Assembly: GCA_030390025.1 (NCBI GenBank)
Contig: CM059432.1
Span: forward strand, 93,684,001 to 93,748,000
Direction of reading: 5' to 3'
DNA: 64,000 nucleotides
Source: Squalus acanthias
Lineage: Eukaryota
Shown: piece after piece, positions 3,162 through 51,750 of the stretch
Layout: the number at the start of each line of letters is the position of its first letter
Position numbering within the stretch: the first letter of the stretch is position 1
Position numbers and translations under genes: made by a program
Notes under the pieces: generated by a model
The model's database searches: none
Seen by the model: the letters and a program-made list of their open reading frames with translations, nothing else
What the model was told of the DNA's origin: nothing

Positions 3162-3616
3162 TTGTTTGCATTGCCGTTTTCTTCCAGCTGCAGTTGTGAG
3201 TGTCTTGACAATGAGGTGCTGTAGCATCAATGCACCTCCCCTTTAAGTACTGAATAAAGCCTGTGCCAGACATGACTGGGAATTAGACTGGACCTGATAT
3301 TTGCCCACCTGTTGAGCGGTAAGCTAGTGAGCAGCGGTTTTAGCGCTGAGATCAAGACTACAATAATGTTAATGAAGACTGAGCACGAATTTTGCGTGCT
3401 ACCTAGACTATTTTGACCTGGCGCAGCTTAACATCGTTGGGCCTTAACACTGCCCGTTTCATGGCCACATCCAATTTCTAGGCCAGTATCTTTTATTTCA
3501 GCATAATAACCACAAATAAAAGTGTTTAAGCTGAAAAAGTTTGACAGCCAATTCAGTATTTCCCAGGTACTATGAGGAAATGGAGGTACAAAATATCTGA
3601 CAATCTGGAAAGACTT

Positions 3617-16561: not shown

Positions 16562-17303
16562 GGCCCGAAAATTAGACCTAATACGCGAGAGTACGCACTG
16601 TGTACTCTCACGTTTTAGGTCTCCAATTGTCGGTTTCCAGCATGCACTGCGCATGCGCGGGAAACCGGCACTTCGTGAACTCAAAAGGGGGCGGTTCCTA
16701 AGTGAACCGCGTGCGCGCTACAGGCTGCGCGCACGCAGTGCACTTAGTGCTTTGAACGCGCAGGTAAGCATGGAAGATTTTACACATAAAGAAAGGAGGC
16801 GTAAGACCCTCTTTTAACAAGGTAAGTAGTTAATTAAGTATTATTTTAAAAATTTTTCATCAGGTTTATCTTTTTTAGAGACTTTAAAGAAAGGTAAGTT
16901 TATTTTTATAACTTTTAAAAAGATTTAAAAATTTTTCAAAAAATTAAATTTTTGTTTAAAGTGGTTAATTTATTTAACTATAGTTATTTTATTAATGTGA
17001 TGGTTTTTTTTAAATTTAATTGAGGTTTAGCTGTTCTTTTGGGGGTAAGTTGTATTCATAGCATTGACAGTTCTCCTGTCAAAACTATGAATGAAAGATG
17101 GTGTGCTGCCATTGGCTCTAACTGAATCACGTGATCCCAGAGCTCGCACGAACTAACTGCGTCTGTGGGTCACGCAAGCACTGCACAGCTGCAGCCTTGA
17201 AACTAAAGTTCGTGTGGGCCCGGAGGGAAATGGTAGGCGCGCAGTGAGATATCGCGGGGAAGCCTTACCCCCGCTGGAACGCTCAGTGTTTAATTTCTGG
17301 GCC
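16562..17303. mobile_element. Non-autonomous Harbinger-type element (MITE), structured family, copy 1
   Basis: TIRs GGCCCGAAAATT and AATTTCTGGGCC; AAT TSD (16559-16561, 17304-17306). Removing the element and one TSD restores the Tx1 ORF2 frame (..RCRVINFSVLKEG..). Confidence 0.92.
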
Positions 17304-22878: not shown

Positions 22879-24955
22879 GGGCCAGGAATTCCCATCTACC
22901 CTCTGCTGATTTTTTTGGGCAAAAGTGGGGTGAGTGGGTGGGGACAGAAAATGGATCTGGACTGTGTTCTGCCATGTCCCCATAACAGGGCCTGCTGGCA
23001 TACAATCTGCCTACCCATGTGTGGGTGGGAAGCAGACTGAAGCAGCGATATTTAAAGAGCTCCCCACCTCCATTAAGGTAAGTCTCTGGATAATTGTTTT
23101 TGGCTGCTGGGGATTTTGAGAGCTATTTGTTGACTGCTATGGCAGTTTCTGTTGCTAAAGAGCGTGGAGAGTTTATTTTTGGCTGCAGCTGCGCTGTTTT
23201 ACTTCATTGGCTGCAGGAAAAGAAGTGAATGTTGCTGGGATTACCATTGAGGCTGTCACATCAGCGGCAACAGCAGCACAAACATGTGAAGGCTCAAAGA
23301 AGAGGGTCAAGGAGGCCTTACAGCAGGCGGGTGCTTTACAGCAAGATGTCTTACATCAATATGGAGGAGCAGTGTAAGAAGAGGGTCCACTTCAGCAGGC
23401 AAGCAGTCATTGATCTATTGTAACAGGAATTGGAGCCAAATATCAGGACACACAAAACAGTGTGATGGACACAGTGGCCTTCAACTTCTATGCCATAGGC
23501 TCATTCCAGGCTGCAACAGGTGACATAGTAACATTAGTCAGTTTGCTGTCCATACGGTCATCAAGCAGTTGACGGATACCCTCTTCGTAAGGAGACAGCA
23601 ATACATCACCTTCCCCACAGAAGCTGCTGATTAGGAGAAGAGAGCTCTCGGATTTTCCCGTATGGCTAGGTTTCCCCAGGTGCAAAGTGCTATTGACTGT
23701 ACGCACGTTGCCCTGCTTTGTTCGTGTCAAGAATCATCCATTTTTTCCATCCATAACAGAAAGGGGTTCCACTCACTAACTGTTCAGCTGGTCTGTGACC
23801 ACAGGTAGCGAATAATGCATGTCTGTGCTTTTTTCCTGGCAGTAGTCATGATACCTTCAAACTGCGCCAGTCCTCGATACTCCCTGTCTTCGACCCAGAC
23901 CAGCAGGTGTCAGGCTGGCTCCTTGGAGATAGAGGGTATCTTGTCTACACCTGGCTCATGACTCCTGTCAGGAAACCGGCACAGGCCCTGAGCGTTGATA
24001 CAATGAGAGCCACACACAAACCAGAGCTTTAATTGAGCAATCTTTTGGTGTCCTCAAACAAAAGTTCCTGTGACCAGACCAATCCAGAGGAGTTCAGCAG
24101 TATAGCCCCAAGCGAGTCTCCAGATTTGTAATGGTTTACTGCATGCTGCACAGTCCTGCTATTCAGAGGGGCCGAGCCTTGCAGCTGCCGCAGAAGGAAG
24201 AAGTGGAGGAGAAAGATGAAGAGGGGGACGACCAAGGCTGAGCAATCCTGCCAGCTGTCAGAGCTGTAAGGCAACAAATTATTAAGGAGAGATTCTCCTA
24301 AGCAAACCCTCCTCCAGCACACAACAGTCCCACTATCTGACCCACTTCTTCCACCCACCTTCTGAATGTCCTCCAACACTACTACCTCATGGGTCTTCCT
24401 CTTACATAACTAAGAATATGAGGAACAACATCAATGCACAAAAAACTCTTTATTTAACATCCTGTACATTGTGGATTTAACAACCTTTCCTTCTCTTAAT
24501 ATTGAAATGAAATTACCTTAGTGAAATCCCGTAGTGCCTGGCAAATGTTAGTCCAGTGTTCCTATGAGATGGTTCCCTGGTCGCAAGAGCCTGGGAGGTG
24601 GAATGCTGCTGATCATCCACTGAGGGCACATGAGATGCCTGTGGTGCACGACCTCGAGCAGCTCTGGCTTTCGAGGGCCTGGCTGCAAACTGCTGTGTCT
24701 CGGTGTCAGCCGGAGCAGTCTGGGCCAGCTGGCTGTATGGGACCAATAAAGGCACTGGGTCAGAGACTGGCAGGGGAGCAGGCATGCTGTCATCCTGAGA
24801 GAGGACAGCATGAACCTCTCCCATGGAGCCAATGTCACTGTCATGGGGCTGCGCCTCTACACTCCCTCTGCTCTGCGTGAAAACAGAGTGAAGGAGTGTA
24901 GTAATGCTCTGGAAGTCCCTATCCATGCTCTCCACACTTCTATCTAAAAGCACTG
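22879..24955. mobile_element. Degraded Harbinger transposon, copy 2
   Basis: Left TIR GGGCCAGGAATT; fragmented transposase (+, ~23229-24300; AIDCTHV, WLLGDRGY); Myb-gene C-terminal remnant (-, 24513-24953; AVLSQDDSM). Confidence 0.85.
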
Positions 24956-25190: not shown

Positions 25191-25811
25191 TGCAGTAGGG
25201 AGTGCTTTTCTGAGGTTGGGGCTAAGGCATGTTGTTGGTGCACAGTAGAGGGGGGTTTCCTCCATTTAGCTGTGGTATCCACAATATGGGAGTACTTGAT
25301 GCTGATACTGGGTGCCTAAAATAGGATAAGTTCCATTTGTCAGAACTAATATTTCTCACCTTGATGAGCACTAAAATTTAATAACAAATGATAATAAAAA
25401 GAGAAAAGAAATCCAAAGTGGTGTGTGCTGAACTGTATAGTGAAAGACAGGGGGGAGAAATTCAATATTGCCCCGTTTGGGGCGCGATTATCGGCCGGGC
25501 GCAAAGTTTAGCGCCTGGCGCTAATTATCGCCTCCAACTGCAAACTTGGCTTTTATTGCCCCTAGAGGTGATTGGAGCGCTAAATCAGGCGCTGCACACC
25601 TGTCTTAAGGCGCAAAGGCCAAGGAGCGAGGCGCTAACTCAGAGCGCGGGCGCAGCGCAGGTGATGTCAGTTAGCGATGGAACACAGACACACTGGCGCC
25701 AGACAGTTCTTCAAGGGGAGGGTCGATCTTGCTCTCCAGCCACACCCTGCTCATTGGAGCCTTGAATCTTGGCCTGGAGAGACCTGTGACTACATTTTCC
25801 AGCCAAGGACT

Positions 25812-27621
25812 ATGGAGAGGGTGAGAGAACGAGCTCAGCGCTTCAGCGAGCGGGCCTTGGAGGCTCTGGTTGGCGCGGTGGAGCGCAGAAGATCTATATT
25901 CTACCCTGAGAGTGGCAGGAGGCCTTTGCCGCAAGACTACAGAAGAGTGTGGAGGGAGGTGGCTCAGCACGTCTCCTCCAGGAGCATGGTGACCAGGACC
26001 CATACTCAATGTCGCAAAAAGTTCAACGACCTCACTCGGGTCGTCAGGGTGAGTGGCTGTTTTTCGATATCCCTCCATCTCAACCTCACTATATGGCCAG
26101 AGGGACTTAAAACCCCAATGCCCAACACTCATCCAACACCTATGGCCCTCTCATGAAACACACATGCACATTCCACACTTTGCATACAGTAAGGGCTATT
26201 CAACTATAGGAGGCACATCAGGCAAGACCATGGCTGCATACAGTAAGGGCTATTCAATTATGGGAGGCACATCAGGCAAGACCATGGCTGTATATTTACT
26301 CAGACGCCATCCTTTTTCTTGCAGGCCAAGCTATCTCATAATAGGAGACAGCAGCAACGGACGGGTGGAGGGCGGCCTCAGCTGCAACCCCTCAGCGATC
26401 TTGAGGCGCGCGTCCACAGGATTGTGGCAAGCCAGGTGATCGGTCCCGTCGCCCCTGGAGAGGCCGACCCCGTTCAGCACAGCAATGGTAAGGTCATCAG
26501 CTTTTCTCCTCTCTCATTCCACTTGTCCCTCACAACACCAGCCTTTGACACTTTCAATCCAACTTACTAAATCGCTGCACTCCTTCCTCCCTTACTGCCC
26601 CTCTGTCCTCACGCTAAAGCCACTCTTGTACCTCCCTGCTTTCAGATGGTGTTTCACCAGCTGAGGAGACGGACCCTGAAGCTGCCAATGGGAGTGAAGC
26701 TGCAGGCGAGGAGGAAGAGGAAGCCGGAGCATCAGTGCCACCCTCTCCCGAGGAAGCCTATGCCCACACTGGGAACACGTCTTCCCTGGAGGGGAGCAGG
26801 GGGAAGGGTCTGATGAGGGTGAAGCTCCAGGACCCAGCGGGCTGCAGCAACGCAATGTGGCTAGGGAAGCTCGGGGGCCTTCTCCCCAGAGGGAGAGTAG
26901 GCCAGCGAGTCCTGCTGCACTGGACGCAGAGGAGGAGCGGCTCATCGCTGAAATGAACACCCAGGCGGTGGACATGCACACTCAGCTCATGGGTGCAGTG
27001 GGAAGGGTGCCCGAATGCATTGATGCACTGGCAAGGAGTGGGGAGCACTTCGCTGTAGCACAGGCGGATGCCATACTAAAGCTTAGTGCTGCAATTCAGT
27101 CACTGGTTGCCGTGATCCCCTCTCAGACTGCTCTCATGCAGACTCAGATTGAGGCCACGCAAGCACTGACTGTTGCCATTGTCGCTGGTTCGGACATATT
27201 TCCCCGGGGCTCTCACCGCGCCGCAGCAGGCCAGTAATCTGTGCTCCAGCAGATTGCTCTGGATGCTGATGTGCTGCCCCGTGGGAGTGCCAGTGTGTCG
27301 GTCGAGCAGGGAGTTGCTGTTCTCTCTCAAGATGACAGCATTCCTGCTGCCACCACTGTCACTTCCCCATTGCACTTGCCACCGCCTGTAGCCCAGACTG
27401 CTGCCGCCCATTTTGAGTTGGTGCAGTCTGCAGCCGGGCCCTCCAGGCCCAGAGCTGGTCAAGGCCGTCCTTCAAGGGCATCTGCAGTCTCAGGTTCTGA
27501 CAATCAGCAGCCTTCCACCAGCCTTGCTGCAGCCACTGGGGCTCCATTACGGAGGAGCAGTAGGGTGGGAAGGGGGGAAGTGCGCAAGGGAAGGAGATCA
27601 CCCTCGAAGGGCAAAAAGTAG
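25812..27621 (+). pseudogene. Harbinger Myb/SANT-like gene, 3 exons (25812-26048, 26325-26487, 26646-27621)
   Basis: MERVRERAQRFSERALEALV..WREVA..QCRKKFNDL; GT-AG introns of phase 0 and 1; one frameshift near 26810 and TAA at 27235-27237. Confidence 0.9.
26181..26288. repeat. 54-bp tandem duplication in Myb-gene intron 1
   Basis: TGCATACAGTAAGGGCTATTCAA..GACCATGGC twice, with two differences. Confidence 0.95.
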
Positions 27622-27932
27622 GAAGTGTGACGAAATGTTGGTCAATTTTTTATTAAAGGCCGAGGTTCGTGTTCAAACTTTTGTTTCGTGTTTTGGACAT
27701 TATCTCCAGGTTGTGAGAACCAGTTATGTTAATGAATGATTTTTTGTGATTGTTTCTATCAGTTTGTCATGAAGAAATGACACACACAGAGTTTGTGAAA
27801 TAAAGAAGTTTTTGTATTCAAAATGTACAGGTTTGGCCTTTGGAATCATTGCTGCCTTGGCCGGCTTAGGGGTTGCGGGTTGGTTTCATTCATGTTGTTC
27901 TCCATGCCAGAAGCCATTTCGTCAGTAGGGGC

Positions 27933-29080
27933 CTAGAAGCGGCTTGTTATCAGTCATTGACGGACAGCCCTTGCAGTTTCAACATTGTGGGCCTCCCTCC
28001 CGCCTTGGTGCTGCTGATGATCATCCTCCTCCTCTTCCTCCTCCTCCGGTGGTGCTCCAAGGCCTGGTGGCATTGGCTGGGTCCTGAGGATTGCCAGGTT
28101 ATGCAGCATGCAGCGCATAACTATGAAGAGGGAGACTCGCTCAGGCGAGTACTGCAGGGCTCCTCCTGAGTGGTCCAGGCAGCGGAACCGTTGCTTGAGC
28201 ACGCCGATCGTCTGCTCAATGATGTTCCTGGTGGCAAGATGGCTCTCATTGTACCGCAGCTCAGCAGGGGTGTTAGGGTTACGGAGCAGTGTCATCAGCC
28301 AGGTACACAGTGGATAACCCTTGAACCCGAGGAGCCAACCACTTGGCTGATGCGGTGCCTGGAAAAGTTCTGGCACACCAGTCTGGCGCAGGATGAAAGC
28401 ATCGTGGCTGCTGCCAGGATAGCGGGCATTGACAGCGAGTATCAGCTGTCTGTGGTCACAGACCAACTGGACGTTTAAGGAGTGGAACCCCTTGCAGTTT
28501 CGGAAAACCTCTGCATTCTCATGCGATGCCTGCAATGCCACATGCGTGCAGTCAATGGCGCCCTGCACCATGGGGAAGCCCGCTATCCTCGCAAAGCCCA
28601 ATGCGCGTTCATGCTGCTTGGCCCGGGTCATCGGGAAAGAGATGTACTGGCGTCTCCTTTTATAGAGGGCATTTGTGACCTGACGGATACAGCAATGGAC
28701 CGCGAACTGGGAGATATTGGCGATGTCCCCAGTAGCTGCTTGAAAGGAGCTGGTGGCATAAAAGTTCAGAGCCACTGTGACCTTCACTGCCACCGACAGA
28801 GATGTCCTGGTCCTCAGTAGAGGCTGCAGATCTGGCTGCAGCAGGTGGCAGAGCTCAGTGACCACCTCCTTGCTGAAGCGCAGCCTGCGCAAACACTGCT
28901 CCTCAGATAAATTAATGTCGGAGAATTGTTGCCAAAATACCCTGGGAGGGTAAGGTCTCCTGTACAGAGGCCTGCTGGCCCTCCTCCGTCTGGTCATGAT
29001 TGCCACTCTCTCTCTGCGTCTCTGTTGCCCCCAATTCTGCAGGTGCAGGACGACGCCCCGAATCAGTGCAGCCCCCTCAG
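27933..29080 (-). CDS. Harbinger DDE transposase, almost uninterrupted ORF but catalytic D2 replaced by F
   Basis: GAIDCTHV, YPGSSHD, WLLGFKGY, RNIIEQTIG. Premature TGA at 27956-27954 lies 7 codons before the natural TAG. Start codon uncertain. Confidence 0.9.
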
Positions 29081-30452
29081 TCTCTTGGTAATCGAAGTAA
29101 TGAAGGTCAAATCCAAAAGTGCCAGCAAAGTGATGCTCAGTAGCCAAAACTACTTCACACAGCGTTGACTCTATGCAGAAGTCTCTCCTCTCTCTAAGAA
29201 TCTCTCTTTCTGTCAGAATGAGTGGTGCAAAAATGTCTACCACAGAAAAAGCCAGGAAGAGGCCGCCTTTAAATAACACTCCCCCAGCCCCTCACCGACT
29301 GGGAAATGTTTCAGTCTCCCTATCGTTGCTAGCACCAGGCGAAAAGGAGGGGGCGCCACTCAATATCCGGTCCGGGGCGCCACAAGGGCGTTGCACGCTC
29401 GGCTGATGTCAAGATCTGCGGGCACAGGAGATCGGGGCGGTAGTGTTTAGCACCGCCGCAAAATGTCTGGTCAATTTCGCGAGCGGCGCAGACATCGCCG
29501 CGCCCGGGCGCTAGTTGCTTTGCGCCCCATTAGCGCCCTCTTAAGGCGCTAACGGGAGGCGCAAACCAACCGAATTTTTCCCCCAGGGTATTTTAATAAT
29601 GTGAAAGATTTCCGTTTTTCAGTAAATGCTGAAAGGTGCAAAAGTAATATCAAAGGACCTGAGAGTGACAGTTTGTGCTGGTTCTTAATGTTCTCTCTCA
29701 GTTGAGCTCAGTCATGACAGACACGTTTAACAGCGATATGGTTATTTTGTCAGCTCTTGAAAGCTTAACTCCAAACATGTTATAGTAAAGTATTGTTCAT
29801 CTTAAAAATATATAAATCAAGACATTAATTATTTTAGTGAAAGCTTTTCTCCATCCAGATTTTTTTCCCATCAAGTGGTGAAATTAACCTTTTAAAGGAT
29901 TGTTCTAAGAACTCACTCCTTTTAGAATACTTTTATGATCCTGTAAGTACATCTTGGTGACATGCCAACTTCCAGGGTTAAACATTAATTACAGCCTTTC
30001 AAAACGGATCCAGCACATATACTTTTACCAGTGCATTCTTGTGCAGGTATCTGAAGCTTGCTTATAATCTTTAATACTATCAACCTCAGAATTATGGGAT
30101 AAATTTTGGAATTCAGTGCTCCTGGCCGTAGAGTTTTTTCCACTAGGAATATCCACTGGGAATTCAGGTGTGTGGCGTTCACAATTTTCCCTCCCTTAAA
30201 ACAAATGGACAGAAAATTATCGGCCTGTGTGCTCAAATTCCTGATAGGTGCTTCCAGCATCTGAAGCTCTGTGCTGGGAATACTGAAGAAAAAACATACC
30301 CCTACGTGTTTTCCCCAAGGATTCTACAATACCTACTTTGGACATTGTCTACTGGCTTTAGATGGGAGTCAGCTGAAAAAAAATACTCTCTCTTTTCCCT
30401 AGTTTTCTCCCTCTGCTCCTCTCCTGAAGGCATTGACATTTTGGTGGAATAT

Positions 30453-35733: not shown

Positions 35734-36344
35734 GGGCTGGATTTTCATTGACCCGTGGAGGTGGGTTTGGAGGCGTGTGGGGGGTTAAAATTGCGAAAAC
35801 TGGTGGGCGGGCACAAGTCCGCCTCCATGCAATTTTCATGAAATCGTGTCTGCTGGTCCTGACTGCGTCCCGCCTTTAAGAGATGGGATAGGCTGTTAAG
35901 GCCCTTAACAAGCACTAAATTGGCTCTATAATGCCATTTTGAAAGGCTTTTGTGATTTTAACCCTTGTTGTACGTGAAGCACGCCTGTTCTGAACCACGA
36001 TTGTGAAACCTGGCGGGAGCACATTTGTCTGTCTGTCTCTCTCTCTCTCAGGTGGTGTAAAAATATGTGGGAGCAGACTTAGGGCTGTTGCTTATTTTGC
36101 AGGTCCTCTCACAGCAAAGGCCAGGCAGTCTTTGTAGACCTTCAATGCAGCAGGAATGATGACATCATCAAAGGCGACTTTCAGACTGAAAACACTAATT
36201 GGTTCATGGGTTCCCACATGCTGGAACTCAATTGCCCAATTAGGTGAAAATTGCATAAATCTCCCACATCCAATTGCAGTTGGGAGGATAACACGAAAAG
36301 TGGATGACACGACCCCAACCCGCTCCAGTATCAAAATCCAGCCC
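35734..36344. mobile_element. Harbinger-type MITE A (611 bp)
   Basis: TIRs GGGCTGGATTTT and AAAATCCAGCCC; AAT TSD. Confidence 0.92.
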
Positions 36345-36386
36345 AATGACTGCATTGTCCCTCTCTTTTGTGAAGACAGACACAAA

Positions 36387-37125
36387 GGGCTGGATTTTGT
36401 CTTGGGGTTGGGTTGGGGTCATGTCATCCGCCCGCCTGAAATTGGATGTGGGAGATTGATGCAATTTTCACTTAATTGGGCAATTGAGTTCCAGCATGTG
36501 GGAACCCATGAACCAATTCGTGGTTTCAGTCTGAAAGTCGCCTCTGATGATGTCATCATTGTAGGTCAGAGACTGCCTGGTCTGGTCTCAGAGATTGCCT
36601 GGCCTTTGGTGTGAGAGGACCTGGATGCAAAATGCAGCATCTCAGCAGAGAGAGAGAAAGAGAAAGAGAGAGAGAATATTTTTTCCATCCAGGTCCTCTC
36701 ACAGCAAGGCCAGGCAGTCTATGAAGACATTCAATGCAGCAGCATCAGAGGCGACTTTCAGACCTAATACTACCACTACCTTCATCACATCTCTGTTGTA
36801 ATAGTGGACCTGCAGCTGATAGTCAACTATCCACTTGTGCTCCCGCCAGGTTTCACTGGCGTGTTTCACATCAGGCGTACTTCACGTTGGAAAAGGGTTA
36901 AACTAGCTAAAACATTTCAAAATGGCATTACAGAGCCAATTTAGGGCTTGTTAAGGGCTTTAATGGCCTCTCCCGCCTCTTGGAGGTGGGACGGAGTCGG
37001 GAACACCTCACACGATTTTATCAAAATTGCGTGGAGGCGGGTTGGAGGCGGGACCCCCGAATCTGCAACTTTAACCCCCCACACGCCTCCAAACCCGACT
37101 CCACGGGTCATTGAAAATCCAGCCC
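36387..37125. mobile_element. Harbinger-type MITE B (739 bp), same family as A, opposite orientation
   Basis: Same TIRs; AAA TSD; reverse-complement similarity to A, with an extra internal duplication. Confidence 0.92.
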
Positions 37126-37859
37126 AAAGTATTCATTAAGAACCATAGTACATCTTCCGCCTCAACACACAGGTGACCTTTTTGGTCTCTAATAGGCCCT
37201 ATACTTCCTTTAGTTATCCTCTTGCTCTTTATGTATTTATAAAACATCTTTGAGTTTTCCTTGATTTTACTTGCCAATATTTTTTCATGCCCTCTCTTTG
37301 CTTTCCTAATTTCCTTTTTAATTTCACCCCTTATTTAGCTCTCGGTATCTGACATAAACTTCCTTTTTTTTGCCTTATCCTACCCTGTATGCCCCTTGAC
37401 ATCCAGGGGGCTCTAGATTTGGGAGTCCCACCCTTTTTCTTTGTGGGAACGTATTTGCTTTGAACCCTCACTATCTCATCCTTAAATGCCTCCCACTGCT
37501 CTGACACTGATTTACCTGCAAGTAACTGTTTCCAGTCCACTTGTGCTAAATCTCATCTCAGCTTAGTAAAATTGGCCTTCCCCCAATAGAGAACTCTTAT
37601 TCCTGGTCTACCTTTGTATTTTTCCATAACTACGCTAAATCTAACTGAATTATGATCACTACCACCAAAATACTCTCCCACTGATACCCCTTCCACCTGC
37701 CCAGCTTCATTCCCTAAAACCAAGTCCAGAGCCGCCCCCTCTTGTTGGGCTTGCTATGTACTGGCTAAAAAAGTTCTCCTGATTGCATTTTAAGAATTTT
37801 GCATGGATTTTTCATTTAGCTTAGGTTCCTCAGCTGAATTCCTGATTGCAGGCAAAAGA

Positions 37860-39074
37860 CTGCCCACTGTTGCAGCTTCCCATTTTAGATGGGTGCATCA
37901 GAGAGCCTGGGGTCGTGCCTGCTCAAGAAGACCTTGCCCTGCGGCGAGCTAGCACCTGTGGCGTCCAATCGCCCTGCCCTAGCTCCTGTGCACTTGTGCC
38001 CGGTGAGACACCACTCCTCTAACCTAGCCTCTAAAATTTGTGTCGTGCCAGTATCTGAGCTAGTGATTGCGAGAGTCAAATCGAGTGATGGTGCATCTTC
38101 CTGAAGGCTCACCTCCTCTTCCTGCACTGGCACAGGGGCTTCCCCATTCTCAGAAGCTGAAATGAAGGAGAAGGATAAGGAATAAAAACAGAAAATGCTG
38201 GAGAGGGAGAAGGGTTAGCTTGTGATGTGAAGGAAGAACAGAGAGAGAGAAGTTGGTGGTGAAAGCATCTGCAGCTTGTCATGCAGAGTATGTGGGCTGA
38301 GAGAGAAGTCAGAAGGGACAAAGAGGATTAGGTATGAAAAAGCCCTGTGCCCCATCTCCTCCAACGGTGCCAGTCACCACGGCCTCGACTCTGCCCCTAC
38401 CTATGATAGCAAGCATGCATTCTTCAAGGGGGAGAGGGTGTGTAGACAGCTGTCTGGAGCTGTGTGCCACCTTCTCCTGCAAAAAAGAATGAAGAGTGTT
38501 CGGGAGAATTTTGGAGAATGTAGCTATCATGGAGGAATAGATGATAGTCAGTATGTGAGTTGAGTTGTGGGTAAGTGAGGGTTGTAGAATGTGAGTATGA
38601 GGACGGGGGATGTAGTGAAGTGTGGTGCAGTGATAGGTGATTGGATGTAATGCTCCTTGACATTCACGTGCTCTGTAATTTCTTCCCACTGATGGCAGAG
38701 TAGAGACCTGGAGGACTTCCTGGCTCCCGTGGGGGAAGAGCTGGTCCCTCTTCCAGTCCACTGCCTGCAGTAGAACCTCCGAAGCAGCATCAGAGAAGCT
38801 TGATGCCATCTCACTAGTTGCTGCAGCCATATCTTTACTCAGAACTGACTGCAGCCAGAATGCACCTCCCTTTAAGAGTTACTGGATGCTTTAAAGTGGC
38901 ATCAGAGATGCCCAATATCCAGCCTGCCCTACGGGCGTGCAGCCAATGAGTCACACTGGGTGCACATCTGCGTGATGATAATGATCAGGCAGCGTGGATA
39001 TTATGTGCTGCTTGAGTCACTTGCAACAGGCGTATAGCGTGCGCCCCAACCCCTGAGCGCCCGATTTCTAGGCC
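37860..39074 (-). mobile_element. One-ended Harbinger remnant with degraded Myb gene
   Basis: TIR GATTTCTAGGCC at 39063-39074; ATG 38830 MAAATSEMASSFSDAASEVLLQAV..LFP; exon-2-like EKVAHS after TTGCAG. Confidence 0.75.
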
Positions 39075-39168
39075 ATGGAATTTGCGTTCACCACTAGATC
39101 CAGTCATGCAAACACTTCCTTTTATTTGGCTGAGTCTGAGTGGAGGTAATTCATGCAAATGAAATAAT

Positions 39169-39911
39169 GGCCCAGAAATTGATCCCGCGACGCGAGAGTA
39201 CGCACTGCGTACTCTCGCGTATTCCCTCTGCAATTGCCGGTTTTCTGCATGCCCTGCGCATGCGCTGAAAACCGGCAATTGCTCTTTTGAAAAGGGGGCG
39301 GTTCCTCGGTGCATCGCGTGCGCGCTACAGGCTGCGCGCACGCTGTGCACTTCATGCTTTGGACGTGCAGGTAAGTACTGAAGATTTTAGAAATGTAAAA
39401 AGGAGGAGTAAGACCCACTTTTAACAAGGTAAGTAGTGAATTAAGTATTTTTTGAATTTTTTTTTACAGGTATATCTTTTTTAGAGACTTTAAAGACAGG
39501 TAAGTTTATTTTTATAACTTTTTAAAAGATTTTAAATTTTTTCAAAAATTTAATTTTTTATTTAAAATGGTTAATTTATTTAACTATACTTATTTTATTA
39601 ATGTGATGGTTTTTTAAAAAAATTTAATTGAGGTATAGCTGTTATTTTGGGGGGTTGTAAGATTCATAGATTTCACAGCCGTGCTGTGAAACTTATGAAT
39701 GGAAGATGGTGTGCTGCCATTGGCTCTAACTGAGTCACGTGATCCCACAGCTCGCACGAATTCACTACGCCGGTGGGATACGCAAGCACTGCCCGGCTGA
39801 TGTCTGGAACATCAAGTTCGTGCGAGCTGGATCTGAAAAAGCACAAGCGAGGTGAGAGATCGCGGGGAAGGCTTACCCCCGCGGGAACAGAGCGAGATCA
39901 ATTTCTGGGCC
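39169..39911. mobile_element. Structured Harbinger-type MITE, copy 2
   Basis: TIRs GGCCCAGAAATTGATC and GATCAATTTCTGGGCC; flanks AAT/ATT; collinear with 16562-17303. Confidence 0.92.
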
Positions 39912-44517: not shown

Positions 44518-45938
44518 GGGCGCGATTTTCCCAATGGAGGCGGGTTGGATGCGGGTTTTGGTTTGGGTAGGTTCCAAACCCGCCTCCACTGAGAGGTGAG
44601 AAAAATTTGCAATTTTCCCCTAATTAGCCAGTTGACTTCAGAGGTGTGGGTTCCCCTGGGCCAATTAGTGTTTTGGGACTGAAACTCTCCTCTGCTGACG
44701 TCACTTATCCAGCTTCATTTAAGGGCTGTTTGCTGCCTTGGCTCATTCCACTGTTTTTTGGTCGATGCTGCACCACCTCCAAGCTGTTATTTCATTGCAG
44801 AATGGCCAGCTCCAAGGCAAGGACCTCCCCGAGGTTCTCGGATGAGGCGCTGGGTATGCTGGTTGAGGGAGCGAGAGCCAGCAGGGAGGTGCTCTTCCCC
44901 TCATCTGGGAGGAAGAGGCCTCCCAAAAAAACCAAGACTGTGTGGGTCCAGCTGGCAAGGGATATAACCTCCAGATCTGTGTACAGATTGGGTGATTGTT
45001 TTTGTTTATTGATGAAATGCCATCCCTGTGGGAATGTATTAAAATTAGGTGATGGCAAACTGTTGGTGTGATGGCATCTGTTATTTCAGCTTAGGCAGCT
45101 CCACATTGCGGGCTCCGCGACACTTGCATGGTCAGGTTGGTGGTCAGAGTGAAAGGCGGCCAAAGAGTCATGTCCATTGTTTATCATGTGTTGAGAAGGA
45201 GCCAAGCACATGTGCCACAATGGGCAACCTATGTAAATCTGGCCAGGATGAGTGCATTCCTTGCACGACGTGCTTCCATGCACTGGCGCCTTCTGCCCTG
45301 TGCAGCATCAGGTGGGTGAGCAGGAGGTTGGGGCTCCTGCTGCTGTCCTGCCTGGTTCTGCTGCTGCCGTGGCTGCTCCTCATCCGAATCTGAGATCCAT
45401 GGTGAAAGGAAATAAATGGTTCCCATGCTGCTGACAGATACCTCCATTGGGGAAGCGCTCAGTCCAAGCGGGGAGAGGGTCTTCCAAGGAGGTCCCACAG
45501 TTGAGAGATAGAAGCTGCAGCACCTCCGACTTTGGTAGGCCTGCTAAAAGTGCTGAAAGACCTTTGGAAAGTTCTGCCATCTGCAACTGCTCCCTGATGA
45601 AAGCTCCGTTTTAATGGTGGAGCTGCAGCTGTGAGGAGGCCACCCACTTGTCAACCCACCAGGATCAGCTGGCGTGGTTTAGGAGGGTCGTGGAACACGC
45701 TGAAAATGTGGCAAAATAACAAAGACCTGTCAAAATAGGATTGTAGAGGAACTTAACTACTATTTAAGGGTCTTAACTAACTCTGCCGACTGATGGAGGT
45801 GGGACCGAATCGCGCCCATCAAACCCGCCTCCGGCAAAATTGCGCGGAGGCGGGTTCGGAACCCGCCCTCAGTTTTTGCCATTTTACCAACTGTCTCGCC
45901 TCCAAACCCCGCCTCCTCGGGGCTGGGAAAATTGCCCC
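44518..45938. mobile_element. Internally deleted Harbinger element
   Basis: TIRs GGCGCGATTTTCCCA and TGGGAAAATTGCCCC; Myb N-terminus from ATG 44802 (PRFSDEALGMLV..REVLFP..W); Q/R-rich transposase-like N-terminus on the minus strand near 45400. Confidence 0.85.
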
Positions 45939-49700: not shown

Positions 49701-51750
49701 CCAGTGGTGTACCGCAGGGATCGGTGCTGGGTCCTTTGCTGTTTGTAGTGTACATTAATGATTTAGATATGAATGTAGGAGGTATGATCAGTAAGTTCGC
49801 AGATGACACGAAAATTGGTGGAGTGGTAAATAGCGAGGAGGGAAGCCTCAGGCTACAGGACGATATAGACGGGTTGGTCAGATGGGCAGAACAATGGCAA
49901 ATGGAATTTAACCCTGAAAAGTGTGAGGTGATGCATTTTGGGAGGACTAACAAGGCAAGGGAATACACAATGAATGGTAGGATCCTAGGGAGGACAGAGG
50001 ATCAGAAAGACCTTGGTGTGCATGTACATAGATCCCCGAAGGCAGCAGGACAGGTAGATAAGGTGGTTAAAAAGGCATATGGGATACTTGCCTTCATTAG
50101 CCGAGGCATAGAATATAAGAGCAGGGAGGTTACGATGGAGCTGTACAAAACGCTAGTTAGGCCACAGCTGGAATACTGTGTGCAGTTCTGGTCGCCACAC
50201 TATAGGAAGGATGTGATTGCATTGAGAGGGTGCAGAGGAGATTCACCAGGATGTTACCTGGGCTGGCGCGCTTCAGCTATGAAGAGAGACTGGACAGGCT
50301 GGGGTTGTTTTCCTTAGAGCAGAGAAGGCTGAGGGGGGACCTGATTGAGGTGTACAAAATTATGAGGGGCATAGATAGGGTAGATAGAAAGGAACTTTTC
50401 CCCTTAGAGGGGTCAATAACCAGGGGGCATAGTTTCAAGGTAAGGGGCAGGAGGTTTAGAGGGGATTTGAGGAAAAACTTTTTCACCCAGAGGGTGGTTG
50501 GAATTTGGAACTCACTGCCTGAAAGGGTGGTAGAGGCAGGAACCTTCACAACATTCAAGAAGCATTTAGATGAGCACTTGAAACGCCATAGCATACAAGG
50601 CTACGGACCAAGTGCTGGAAAACGGGATTAGAATAGATAGGGCTTGATGGCCGGCGCAGACACGATGGGCTGAAGGGCCTCTTTCTGTGCTGTATAAATC
50701 TATGACCCTGCAGCCATGTCTCCGTAATCAGAATTATATCGTATCCGTTTACATCTATTTGCGCTGTTAATTCGTCTACCTTATTACGAATGCTTCGTGC
50801 ATTGAGATACAGTGCCTTTAGATTTGTCTTTTTAACATTTTTAGACATCTTAACATTTTTTTGTACTATGGCCCTACTTGTCTTATTACCATTTTTTCTT
50901 ACCCGGACCCTATTTGTTAGTGCACTCTTTTGTTTGTACGCTCTGTCCCTTCCTGACACAATCTGGTTATCCTTACCCCAATCAATTTCCTGCACTGCTT
51001 CCTTGTCTTTTCTCTTTAGCATTCTAGATTTCTCTCCAACGGGACCCTCCCCCCGCCCCCGGCCTTATTTAGTTTAAAGCCCTATCTACCTCCCAAGTTA
51101 TTCGATTCGCTAGAACTCTGGTCCCAGCATGGTTCAGGTGTAGTCCGACCCAACGGAACAGCTCTCTCTTTCCCCAGTACTGGTGCCAGTGGCCCACGAA
51201 TCGAAACCCACTTCTCCCACACCAATCTTTGAACCACGCATTCATCTCCCTGATCCTATTGACCCTATGCCAATTTGCTCGTGGCTCCAGTAATAATCCA
51301 GAGATTATGACACCTTTGTGGTTCTGCTTTTTAATTTAGTCCCTAGCTGCTCAAACTCTCTCAGCAGAACCTCTTTCTTTGTCCTACCTATGTCGTTAGT
51401 ATCTATGTGGACCACGACAACTGGATCCTCCCCCTCCCACTCCAAGTTCTTCTCCAGGAGATGTCCTTTACCCTGGCACTGGGTAGGCAACATAGCCTTC
51501 GGGACTCACGCTCCTGGCTGCAGAGAACAGTGTCTATCCCCCTAACTATACTGTCGTCTACTACAACCACCTTCCTTTTTACTCCCTCCACTTGAATGGC
51601 TTCCTGTACCACGGTGCCATGGTCAGTTTGCTCGTCCTCCCCGCAGTCCCCGCACTTGTCCACAAGGGTTGCAAGAACCTCGAATCTATTGGATAAGTGC
51701 AGGGACTGAGGCTCATACAATACTACCTCCTGGATCTCCATACCTGCCTC
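46777..51750 (-). mobile_element. Near full-length CR1 LINE (ORF1 esterase remnant plus ORF2), interrupted
   Basis: SGNH remnant 51740-51070, LNARSI..ETWLQG APE start, RT and tail at 46777. Confidence 0.92.
49516..50704 (+). mobile_element. 5'-truncated CR1 LINE inserted antisense in the host CR1 endonuclease domain
   Basis: Begins at AVDVVYMDFSKAFD; FADD; CTATGA tail; splits host ETWLQG|QGW with no TSD. Confidence 0.92.

Follow-up and report, generated by a model that had tools for sequence, protein, structure and literature searches.

The window, by which we mean the whole 64-kb stretch of DNA analysed, is a patchwork of LINEs and Harbinger-type transposons. It holds two copies of one short element on the plus strand, copy 1 at 16562..17303 (742 bp) and copy 2 at 39169..39911 (743 bp), with 82% identity over 756 alignment columns; these are the coordinates and lengths that an earlier note on this DNA had given. 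The left terminal inverted repeat of copy 2 (39169..39184, plus strand) pairs with a right one of Harbinger type (39896..39911, minus strand) at 16/16 positions, the figure for copy 1 being 13/16, and the right end has 11/12 letters in common with the Harbinger-type ends at 3484 and 39074. A DDE_Tnp_4 match at 138-803 in the window is taken to belong to the same element as the 3484 end. Copy 1 sits in the endonuclease part of a minus-strand LINE ORF2, which it interrupts between MKVTIASLNINGSRETRCRVI and INFSVLKEGKYVVCFLQETH. Because the Ile codon of the bordering LINE frame is doubled (...RCRVI, then INFSVLK...), the ends of copy 1 and its 3-bp target duplication AAT are fixed; its flanks AAT/AAT are an exact duplication within palindromic target flanks (AGTT-AAT-AACT), and the flanks of copy 2 (AAT/ATT) agree in 2/3 letters. 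Among the LINE domains nearby, RVT_1 was matched downstream at E 2.7e-18 and Exo_endo_phos merely at E 0.016. Coding capacity is absent from both copies, the longest ATG frames being 54 aa in copy 1 and 62 aa in copy 2. Such terminal repeats and 3-bp duplications are given for Harbingers in the available text of two reports, along with a requirement for a transposase and a Myb-like protein (PMC9179366, PMC9392472). From its terminal repeats, its 3-bp target duplication and its lack of a coding frame, therefore, the element is a non-autonomous Harbinger-type transposon (a MITE), and its interior is unusually structured and rich in signals.

No cognate autonomous or parent element was found within the 64-kb window, where the coding Harbingers have no interior similarity to it. 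One of these (25451-29585) has two genes, a Myb-like frame on the plus strand and a 445-aa stop-free transposase frame on the minus strand, with Pfam matches to DDE_Tnp_4 and Myb_DNA-bind_5 and flanks CAG / GGG; a TTTAGCGCC-like 9-mer occurs 8 times, in either orientation, at both its ends. A Harbinger-type MITE with arms of about 300 bp (81% identical) occupies 35734-37125; a second inverted-repeat element is nested in it at about 36100-36623, and its right part resembles 45604-45932. A decayed Harbinger remnant of the Myb side (about 37800-39074) ends 94 bp short of copy 2, and the gap 39074-39169 contains two ATGCAAA motifs, presumably octamer-like. A TTTAAAG/TTTAAGG-like motif, possibly a common core promoter, is located 170-315 bp inside 5/9 Harbinger-type ends (3484, 22879, 29587, 39074 and 44518). 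An isolated long hairpin (19 bp, loop 27) was seen at 51644-51708 within a LINE-like stretch. As for host exons, Pfam returned 0 matches in 114/148 non-repeat frames of the window.

The interior of the element opens with hairpin H1 (39190..39220), a palindrome with a 1-nt centre. The earlier note had described a perfect 15-bp stem here; the 15 complementary pairs exist, but since they surround a 1-nt centre, a single strand can form only 14 bp with a 3-nt loop. The perfect 16-bp stem, the GCGTGCGCGC stem and the stem at 39662-39700 that it listed are all present. H2 (39230..39282) adds to its 16 bp an inner stem of 6-7 bp and has one internal compensation, H3 (39309..39350) has an invariant 10-bp stem with an 8-nt loop, and H4 (39662..39700) consists of two stems flanking a 2x2 internal loop, with one internal compensation and a loop that is not kept. 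Loop sizes of H1 to H4 are 3, 5, 8 and 3-5 nt. Further right, a nested long helix of 13-15 bp (39748..39829, arms 39748-39762/39815-39829) encloses inner hairpins that differ by copy, and a short G/C hairpin, H6 (39862..39882), adjoins the right end with 6/6 pairs identical between the copies. Copy 1 has two perfect, private extensions lacking in copy 2, one of 8 bp on H1 (16574-16581/16615-16622) and one of 4 bp on H3.

The strength of this folding was compared with the rest of the window. Ten strong hairpin loci were found in the 64 kb: the two copies account for 7, the ends of a further Harbinger-type element for 2, and other sequence for the last. Segments of 200 nt were preferred for z scores, the whole-element values (−6.9 to −13.8) being inflated by the GC/AT patchwork and based on 20 shuffles. 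The first 200 nt gave z of −7.3/−9.2 (plus/minus strand) in copy 1 and −9.8/−10.6 in copy 2, compared with −2.8 to +0.9 in 25 random windows and +1.0 to −5.7 in 9 other Harbinger-type ends. The last 200 nt of copy 1 were unremarkable in structure (−0.7/0.0). Folded as DNA, the stems gave z of −3.5 to −7.6. The hairpins are real and well beyond chance, and the ordered set is unusually strong.

We then examined how far pairing is kept between the copies. Watson-Crick pairs fill 84 of the 90 stem columns in copy 2, and 73/84 are still Watson-Crick in copy 1. Both sides changed in 4/84 pairs, compared with 0.38 expected for 20 randomly placed differences (P about 1.5e-4); pairing P values of this kind are optimistic, since the stems were defined on copy 2 and picked because both copies show them, and since differences occur in clusters. 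Two of the four lie inside continuous stems and bear out the internal compensations cited earlier, 39244:39268 in H2 (T-A vs C-G) and 39674:39688 in H4 (C-G vs G-C), which alone give P about 0.05; the remaining two are outermost pairs adjoining a copy 1 mismatch. As a general statement, however, the claim that the differences between copies are compensatory fails, with 11/84 copy 2 pairs losing Watson-Crick pairing in copy 1. Internal-loop geometry is conserved in H3 and H4, and the 2x2 loop of H4 stays put in both copies although its letters differ. Stem positions differ at 28/180, compared with 63/224 in unpaired linkers (p 0.003, for stems picked as visible in both copies), and loop positions at 4/36. 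The terminal inverted repeats, 740 bp apart, have 2/16 pairs (13 and 15) altered on both sides between copies. If the linkers, at 34%, show the free rate, constraint must act on the stems (16%), the loops (11%), the middle of the element (11%) and a promoter-like block (4%) alike, the 73 kept pairs exceed the 40 expected, and the 4 double changes are unexceptional against 3.3 expected. If instead the 11% of the middle is the baseline, the linkers are hypermutable and the double changes alone stand out.

Pairing that persists in this way could reflect selection on an RNA. The plus strand of the element would be transcribed from the element's own promoter or by read-through, and its hairpins, together with three U1-type splice donors, would aid its persistence, for example by splicing the element out, blocking early polyadenylation or evading silencing. 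The 73/84 kept pairs, the 4 double changes and the conserved internal-loop geometry of H3 and H4 speak for such a role, as do the presence of the 3 donors on the plus strand only, the lack of AATAAA anywhere on the plus strand of the element, and a 3′ helix that folds better on that strand (−18.4 vs −11.4 kcal/mol in copy 1 for the helix alone; −69.2 vs −54.7 for the consensus fold including it). Among 23 listed sequencing runs, 20 carry part of copy 2 and 14, from 10 studies, carry at least half of its words; the share reaches at least 0.59 in organisms A and B and 0.43 in organism C, and the run with the largest share may be the source sample. For eight runs classed by guess as RNA, from two studies, the share is 0.44-0.59; these are contigs of uncertain type that give neither strand, ends nor level. 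Two runs recorded as RNA hold 0.13 and 0.06, which we do not count as evidence.

Other observations weigh against a selected RNA, and we consider it unlikely. The strand bias of G-U pairs, which the earlier note had proposed as a check, did not appear: on the plus strand the two copies together have 7 G-U, 5 A-C and 8 other oppositions (p 0.39, at low power). Both strands fold equally well, and composition-controlled z does not differ between them, the 3′ helix region included. No GNRA or UNCG loop was found among the hairpins. Rfam, another check proposed there, gave 0 matches at gathering score across the 64 kb, with sub-threshold ones only, and 0 up to E 5 within the 3′ part of copy 2; the matches of H2 are generic and pre-miRNA-like, on both strands, at 15-26 bits against cut-offs of 63-124. 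No ribozyme, C-box or Pol III B-box motif is kept at positions common to both copies. Using what we take to be the catalytic patterns, we found neither an HDV-type loop motif within the proposed pseudoknot nor a hammerhead core at any position common to the copies, and a scan of the 3′ part for bacterial promoters and terminators gave 0. Should the NRF1-like and GC-box motifs described below form the promoter, transcription would moreover start downstream of H1 and H2.

The pseudoknot had been proposed from a 13-bp match between 39748-39760 and 39817-39829, which is indeed perfect in copy 2. Both mismatches in copy 1 are G-U compatible, as had been said, in the register of that copy (17142-17154/17207-17219), but the homologous 13 columns add an A-C mismatch. 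The stem that would have to cross this match has 7 bp in copy 2 but only 4 in copy 1, and with a folding program that does not score pseudoknots its probability was 0 in all four nested ensembles, so the pseudoknot itself is not borne out; the 13-bp pairing forms as a nested helix of 13-15 bp that closes other hairpins. Freeing the arms of the crossing stem would cost 4.2 against 12.2 kcal/mol of stacking in copy 2 and 8.4 against 9.2 in copy 1, before any pseudoknot penalty, and by these estimates copy 2 could therefore form a pseudoknot, whereas copy 1 is unlikely to. RNA-specific signs are weak overall. Of the proposal that the element carries a transposon-borne structured ncRNA under selection, the pairing kept above chance survives; the absent G-U bias, the equal strands, the lack of an Rfam family and the unsupported pseudoknot tell against the rest, and a structured ncRNA is the less likely form of a selected structure.

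Several further signals had been overlooked previously: three donor motifs, a block resembling a promoter, and a T/A period of 10 bp within the middle of the element. The donor motifs, which match the 5′ splice-site consensus, lie at 39368..39504 on the plus strand (AGGTAAG at 39369, 39427 and 39498) and are kept in both copies; three at offsets 200, 258 and 330 compare with 0.06-0.08 expected (0/500 shuffles), and we regard them as candidate splice donors. Of 9 other ends, only the coding Harbinger end at 22879 has a donor at a similar offset, 199 compared with 202 here. Both copies also keep a CTAAC that resembles a branch point, followed some 20 nt later by an AG (39725-39750), and a pyrimidine-rich acceptor is kept in both at offset 302-303 (39455-39483). 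A spliced form of the element is possible on these motifs. That three donors are strand-specific argues that RNA of the element matters at some stage.

A motif at 39295..39301 on the plus strand, which we take to be GC-box-like, is identical in both copies (p 0.03-0.06 against piecewise shuffles), and H2 contains at 39256-39265 a presumed NRF1-like core; both lie 5′ of the donor motifs. The most conserved block of the element (39701..39747, minus strand) is largely unpaired and carries inward-facing motifs that we assume to be YY1-like, CCAAT-box-like and E-box-like. It differs at 2/47 positions (45/47 identical), compared with 61/177 in unpaired sequence elsewhere. The E-box gave p 0.006 and the CCAAT box 0.03-0.04; single p-values ranged from 0.006 to 0.18, with 11 patterns tried. 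Between these parts lies an AT-rich middle (39433..39643, 84% A+T), in which T versus A recurs every 10.0-10.25 bp in each copy (p 0.003 and 0.007, the best of 4 signals tried); 30/269 positions differ between copies across 39369-39639. DNA bending through phased A-tracts was considered and rejected, the combined AA/TT/AT signal not being periodic (p about 0.4). Antisense polyadenylation signals in the middle number 3-4 against 1.7-2.1 expected, which is not significant. In the available text of a study of mPing, the authors raise the possibility that nucleosomes inside the element draw its ends together, and internal MITE sequence is reported to affect mobility (PMC9921582).

Signals of this kind could also have been captured from the host, Harbinger ends enclosing a CpG-island promoter, first exon and piece of intron as in a Pack-type element. 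The 5′ part has a CpG observed/expected ratio of 1.25-1.29 together with the promoter-like motifs and donors, and animal elements with terminal inverted repeats do capture host DNA, according to the part of one report available (PMC8277862). We nevertheless find such a capture highly improbable: the coding Harbinger ends of the window are also CpG-rich, and neither the hairpins nor their upkeep would be explained. A MITE that keeps promoter-like and splice-donor-like signals could rewire host transcription at its landing sites.

Binding sites for the Myb-like partner protein had been named as another possible source of the stems, and we asked whether the hairpins are merely inverted pairs of one such motif in double-stranded DNA, with the compensations arising by chance. 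Presumed letters of the Harbinger3_DR Myb motif fit the H1 arms at 8/9. A consensus drawn from the arms has 9-10 matches per copy, compared with 2.5-2.8, in a test that is circular. A blind test for a repeated 9-mer was null in 3/4 ends of the element and marginal in the fourth (2/100 shuffles); with partner arms removed, it was marginal in 1/6 settings (1/60) and null in 5/6. The same test recovered a repeated 9-mer in both orientations in 4/4 control Harbinger-type ends that were re-tested, at 0/100 shuffles each, these being the clearest 4 of the 9 ends in an earlier 9-mer scan. The Harbinger3_DR Myb-like protein does bind a 9-bp subterminal motif, as given in the accessible part of one report (PMC9710019). 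The stems of H2 and H4, where the internal compensations lie, contain no Myb-type motif, and the 4 double changes stand against 0.38 expected. A repeated 9-mer therefore does not explain the stems, and we rate this account as very unlikely. Since the Myb-site reading failed, the element stays unusual.

How the two copies came to differ bears on the same question. Their transition/transversion ratio is 0.55, compared with 2.3 for CR1 pairs of like divergence, and CpGs kept and decayed number 27:7, compared with 5:17 and 6:16 in two such CR1 pairs. Adjacent differences number 43 against 23.5 expected. A transversion-rich spectrum (0.57-0.89) also appears in 4 other Harbinger-type comparisons, and so transversion-rich, CpG-sparing divergence is a family-wide signature of mutation or selection. 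Across the window, Harbinger-type pairs are transversion-rich (0.55-0.9) and CpG-sparing, with CR1 at about 2.3 and another LINE pair at 1.5. Differences fall within a perfect local stem of at least 7 bp of one copy in 38/102 cases, compared with 10/196 for CR1 and about 21% for other Harbinger-type ends; the 38/102 partly restates hairpin density. Post-insertion decay, we infer, does not account for most of the 18% divergence. The two copies most plausibly belong to separate subfamilies whose split came before mobilisation had ceased: CpGs have survived, and the differences occur in clusters and are rich in transversions.

Template switching can make or mend perfect stems and compensatory changes in one step, according to the available text of two reports (PMC8794818, PMC8604942), and in grasses, repair that follows transposon excision is reported to increase the mutation rate of neighbouring sequence (PMC5023962). 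By analogy, template switching or repair may act inside the element. Palindrome correction, which the earlier note had itself named as a threat to its reading, fits the strand symmetry, the terminal double changes, the private extensions and the absent RNA signs. A closing stem of RNA or of single-stranded DNA would also explain the terminal double changes.

In a related account, the hairpins would be selected as single-stranded DNA or cruciforms that form in excision, end pairing or repair copying and so raise transposition or amplification. Near-perfect, strand-symmetric Watson-Crick stems with z of −3.5 to −7.6 as DNA are what it would produce; compensation also occurs in H2 and H4, where motifs do not repeat, and folding is stronger than in any of the 9 other ends. 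Yet those other Harbinger-type ends moved with much weaker structure, stem bases have been gained and lost copy-specifically, and we know of no single-strand step in DDE transposases of the Harbinger kind. We hold this account to be quite improbable. Joining the two ideas, the non-autonomous members of this transposon family might be under selection for an RNA that folds and is bound by U1, or for a single-stranded DNA fold equivalent to it, with an ordered scaffold of four hairpins and three donors; compensatory change along transposing lineages would keep the scaffold, which would aid movement or escape from silencing. We put this forward as doubtful and tentative. If true, a DNA transposon would possess its own structured nucleic-acid cofactor, and dependence of a DDE element on a folded nucleic acid would be unexpected to specialists.

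The reading that we prefer, with a probability of about one half, is that of a MITE whose inverted repeats stay matched at the DNA level; such upkeep is more likely than a hidden functional RNA. The element would be a PIF/Harbinger MITE that relies for its movement on a transposase and a Myb-like protein supplied in trans, and its interior a compacted regulatory kit of the parent Harbinger. The left part would comprise an inward-facing CpG-rich promoter, a short first exon and a donor-rich intron, and the right part a second inward promoter, with an A/T spacer phased with the DNA helix between them. The inverted repeats would be DNA features, namely protein-binding sites of symmetric sequence together with the DNA adjoining them. 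As replication or repair copies the element, template switching by fold-back would keep the arms matched, occasionally lengthen them, and alter both terminal repeats together, and selection would act on copies staying mobilisable rather than on a discrete folded RNA.

In favour of DNA-level upkeep, both strands are alike, there is no wobble bias, and the 1-nt centre of H1 cannot be closed by a single strand. Double changes affect 2/16 pairs in the terminal repeats compared with 4/84 inside, and copy 1 has its private extensions (8 and 4 bp). The divergence is transversion-rich, CpG-sparing and clustered. Little of the most conserved stretch is paired, and its motifs are promoter-like; loops differ at only 4/36 positions, the end at 22879 has its like-placed donor, and the T/A period is present. 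Against it, the case has two copies only, with no template-switch event polarised or demonstrated, and the internal loop of H4 persists although arm correction should erase it. Stems differ less than linkers, which fits selection on pairing, and the 3′ helix favours the plus strand. There is also no repeated 9-mer at the ends and no parent element in the window, the p-values of the promoter motifs are modest, and the three donors sit on one strand only. If DNA-level upkeep is the right reading, the element would be a clear natural case of RNA-like covariation in DNA without RNA function, a caution for ncRNA screens of transposon-rich genomes, and a family in which palindrome upkeep could be measured across many copies.

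Exact-pattern scans of viral contigs and prokaryote genomes gave no copy, and metagenome pattern scans gave 0 and 3 matches, the 3 fitting a 20-24-nt pattern alone, as by chance. Such an element is not described in the literature searched; Repbase, Dfam and most subscription papers lay outside that search, so it may be catalogued already.

Among known systems, HDV-like and hammerhead ribozymes, as we understand their features, resemble the element in the 7-bp stem of copy 2 whose loop can pair downstream, and differ in that the element has no conserved catalytic motif. MITE-derived pre-miRNAs, again going by what we take to be their features, are matched by H2 in size, but the miRNA matches of H2 are far below cut-offs and on both strands. 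Stems made by template switching at quasi-palindromes are alike in perfect arms, double changes, clustered multi-base differences and one-step stem gain; in the available text of these reports they are described for RNA genes and yeast DNA, and here they are inferred from two copies (PMC8794818, PMC8604942, PMC3820800). Harbinger3N_DR of zebrafish (PMC2836001, PMC9710019, PMC3016246) and mPing of rice (PMC2836001, PMC9921582) have in common with the element short terminal repeats, a 3-bp target duplication, the absence of a coding frame, palindromic target flanks and an interior that possibly tunes mobility. Unlike them, as far as the accessible parts of those reports go, the element has no statistically repeated 9-bp subterminal motif, and its four long hairpins, long helix, three donors and phased A/T core make up an interior not so described there. 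The coding Harbingers of the window (25451-29585; ends 3484, 22879, 39074, 44518 and 45937) are like it in terminal repeats, CpG-rich ends with some hairpins, transversion-rich divergence and, in one, a like-placed donor; they fold less strongly than it does (best z −5.7), have clear repeated 9-mers in 4 ends and show no similarity to it in the interior.
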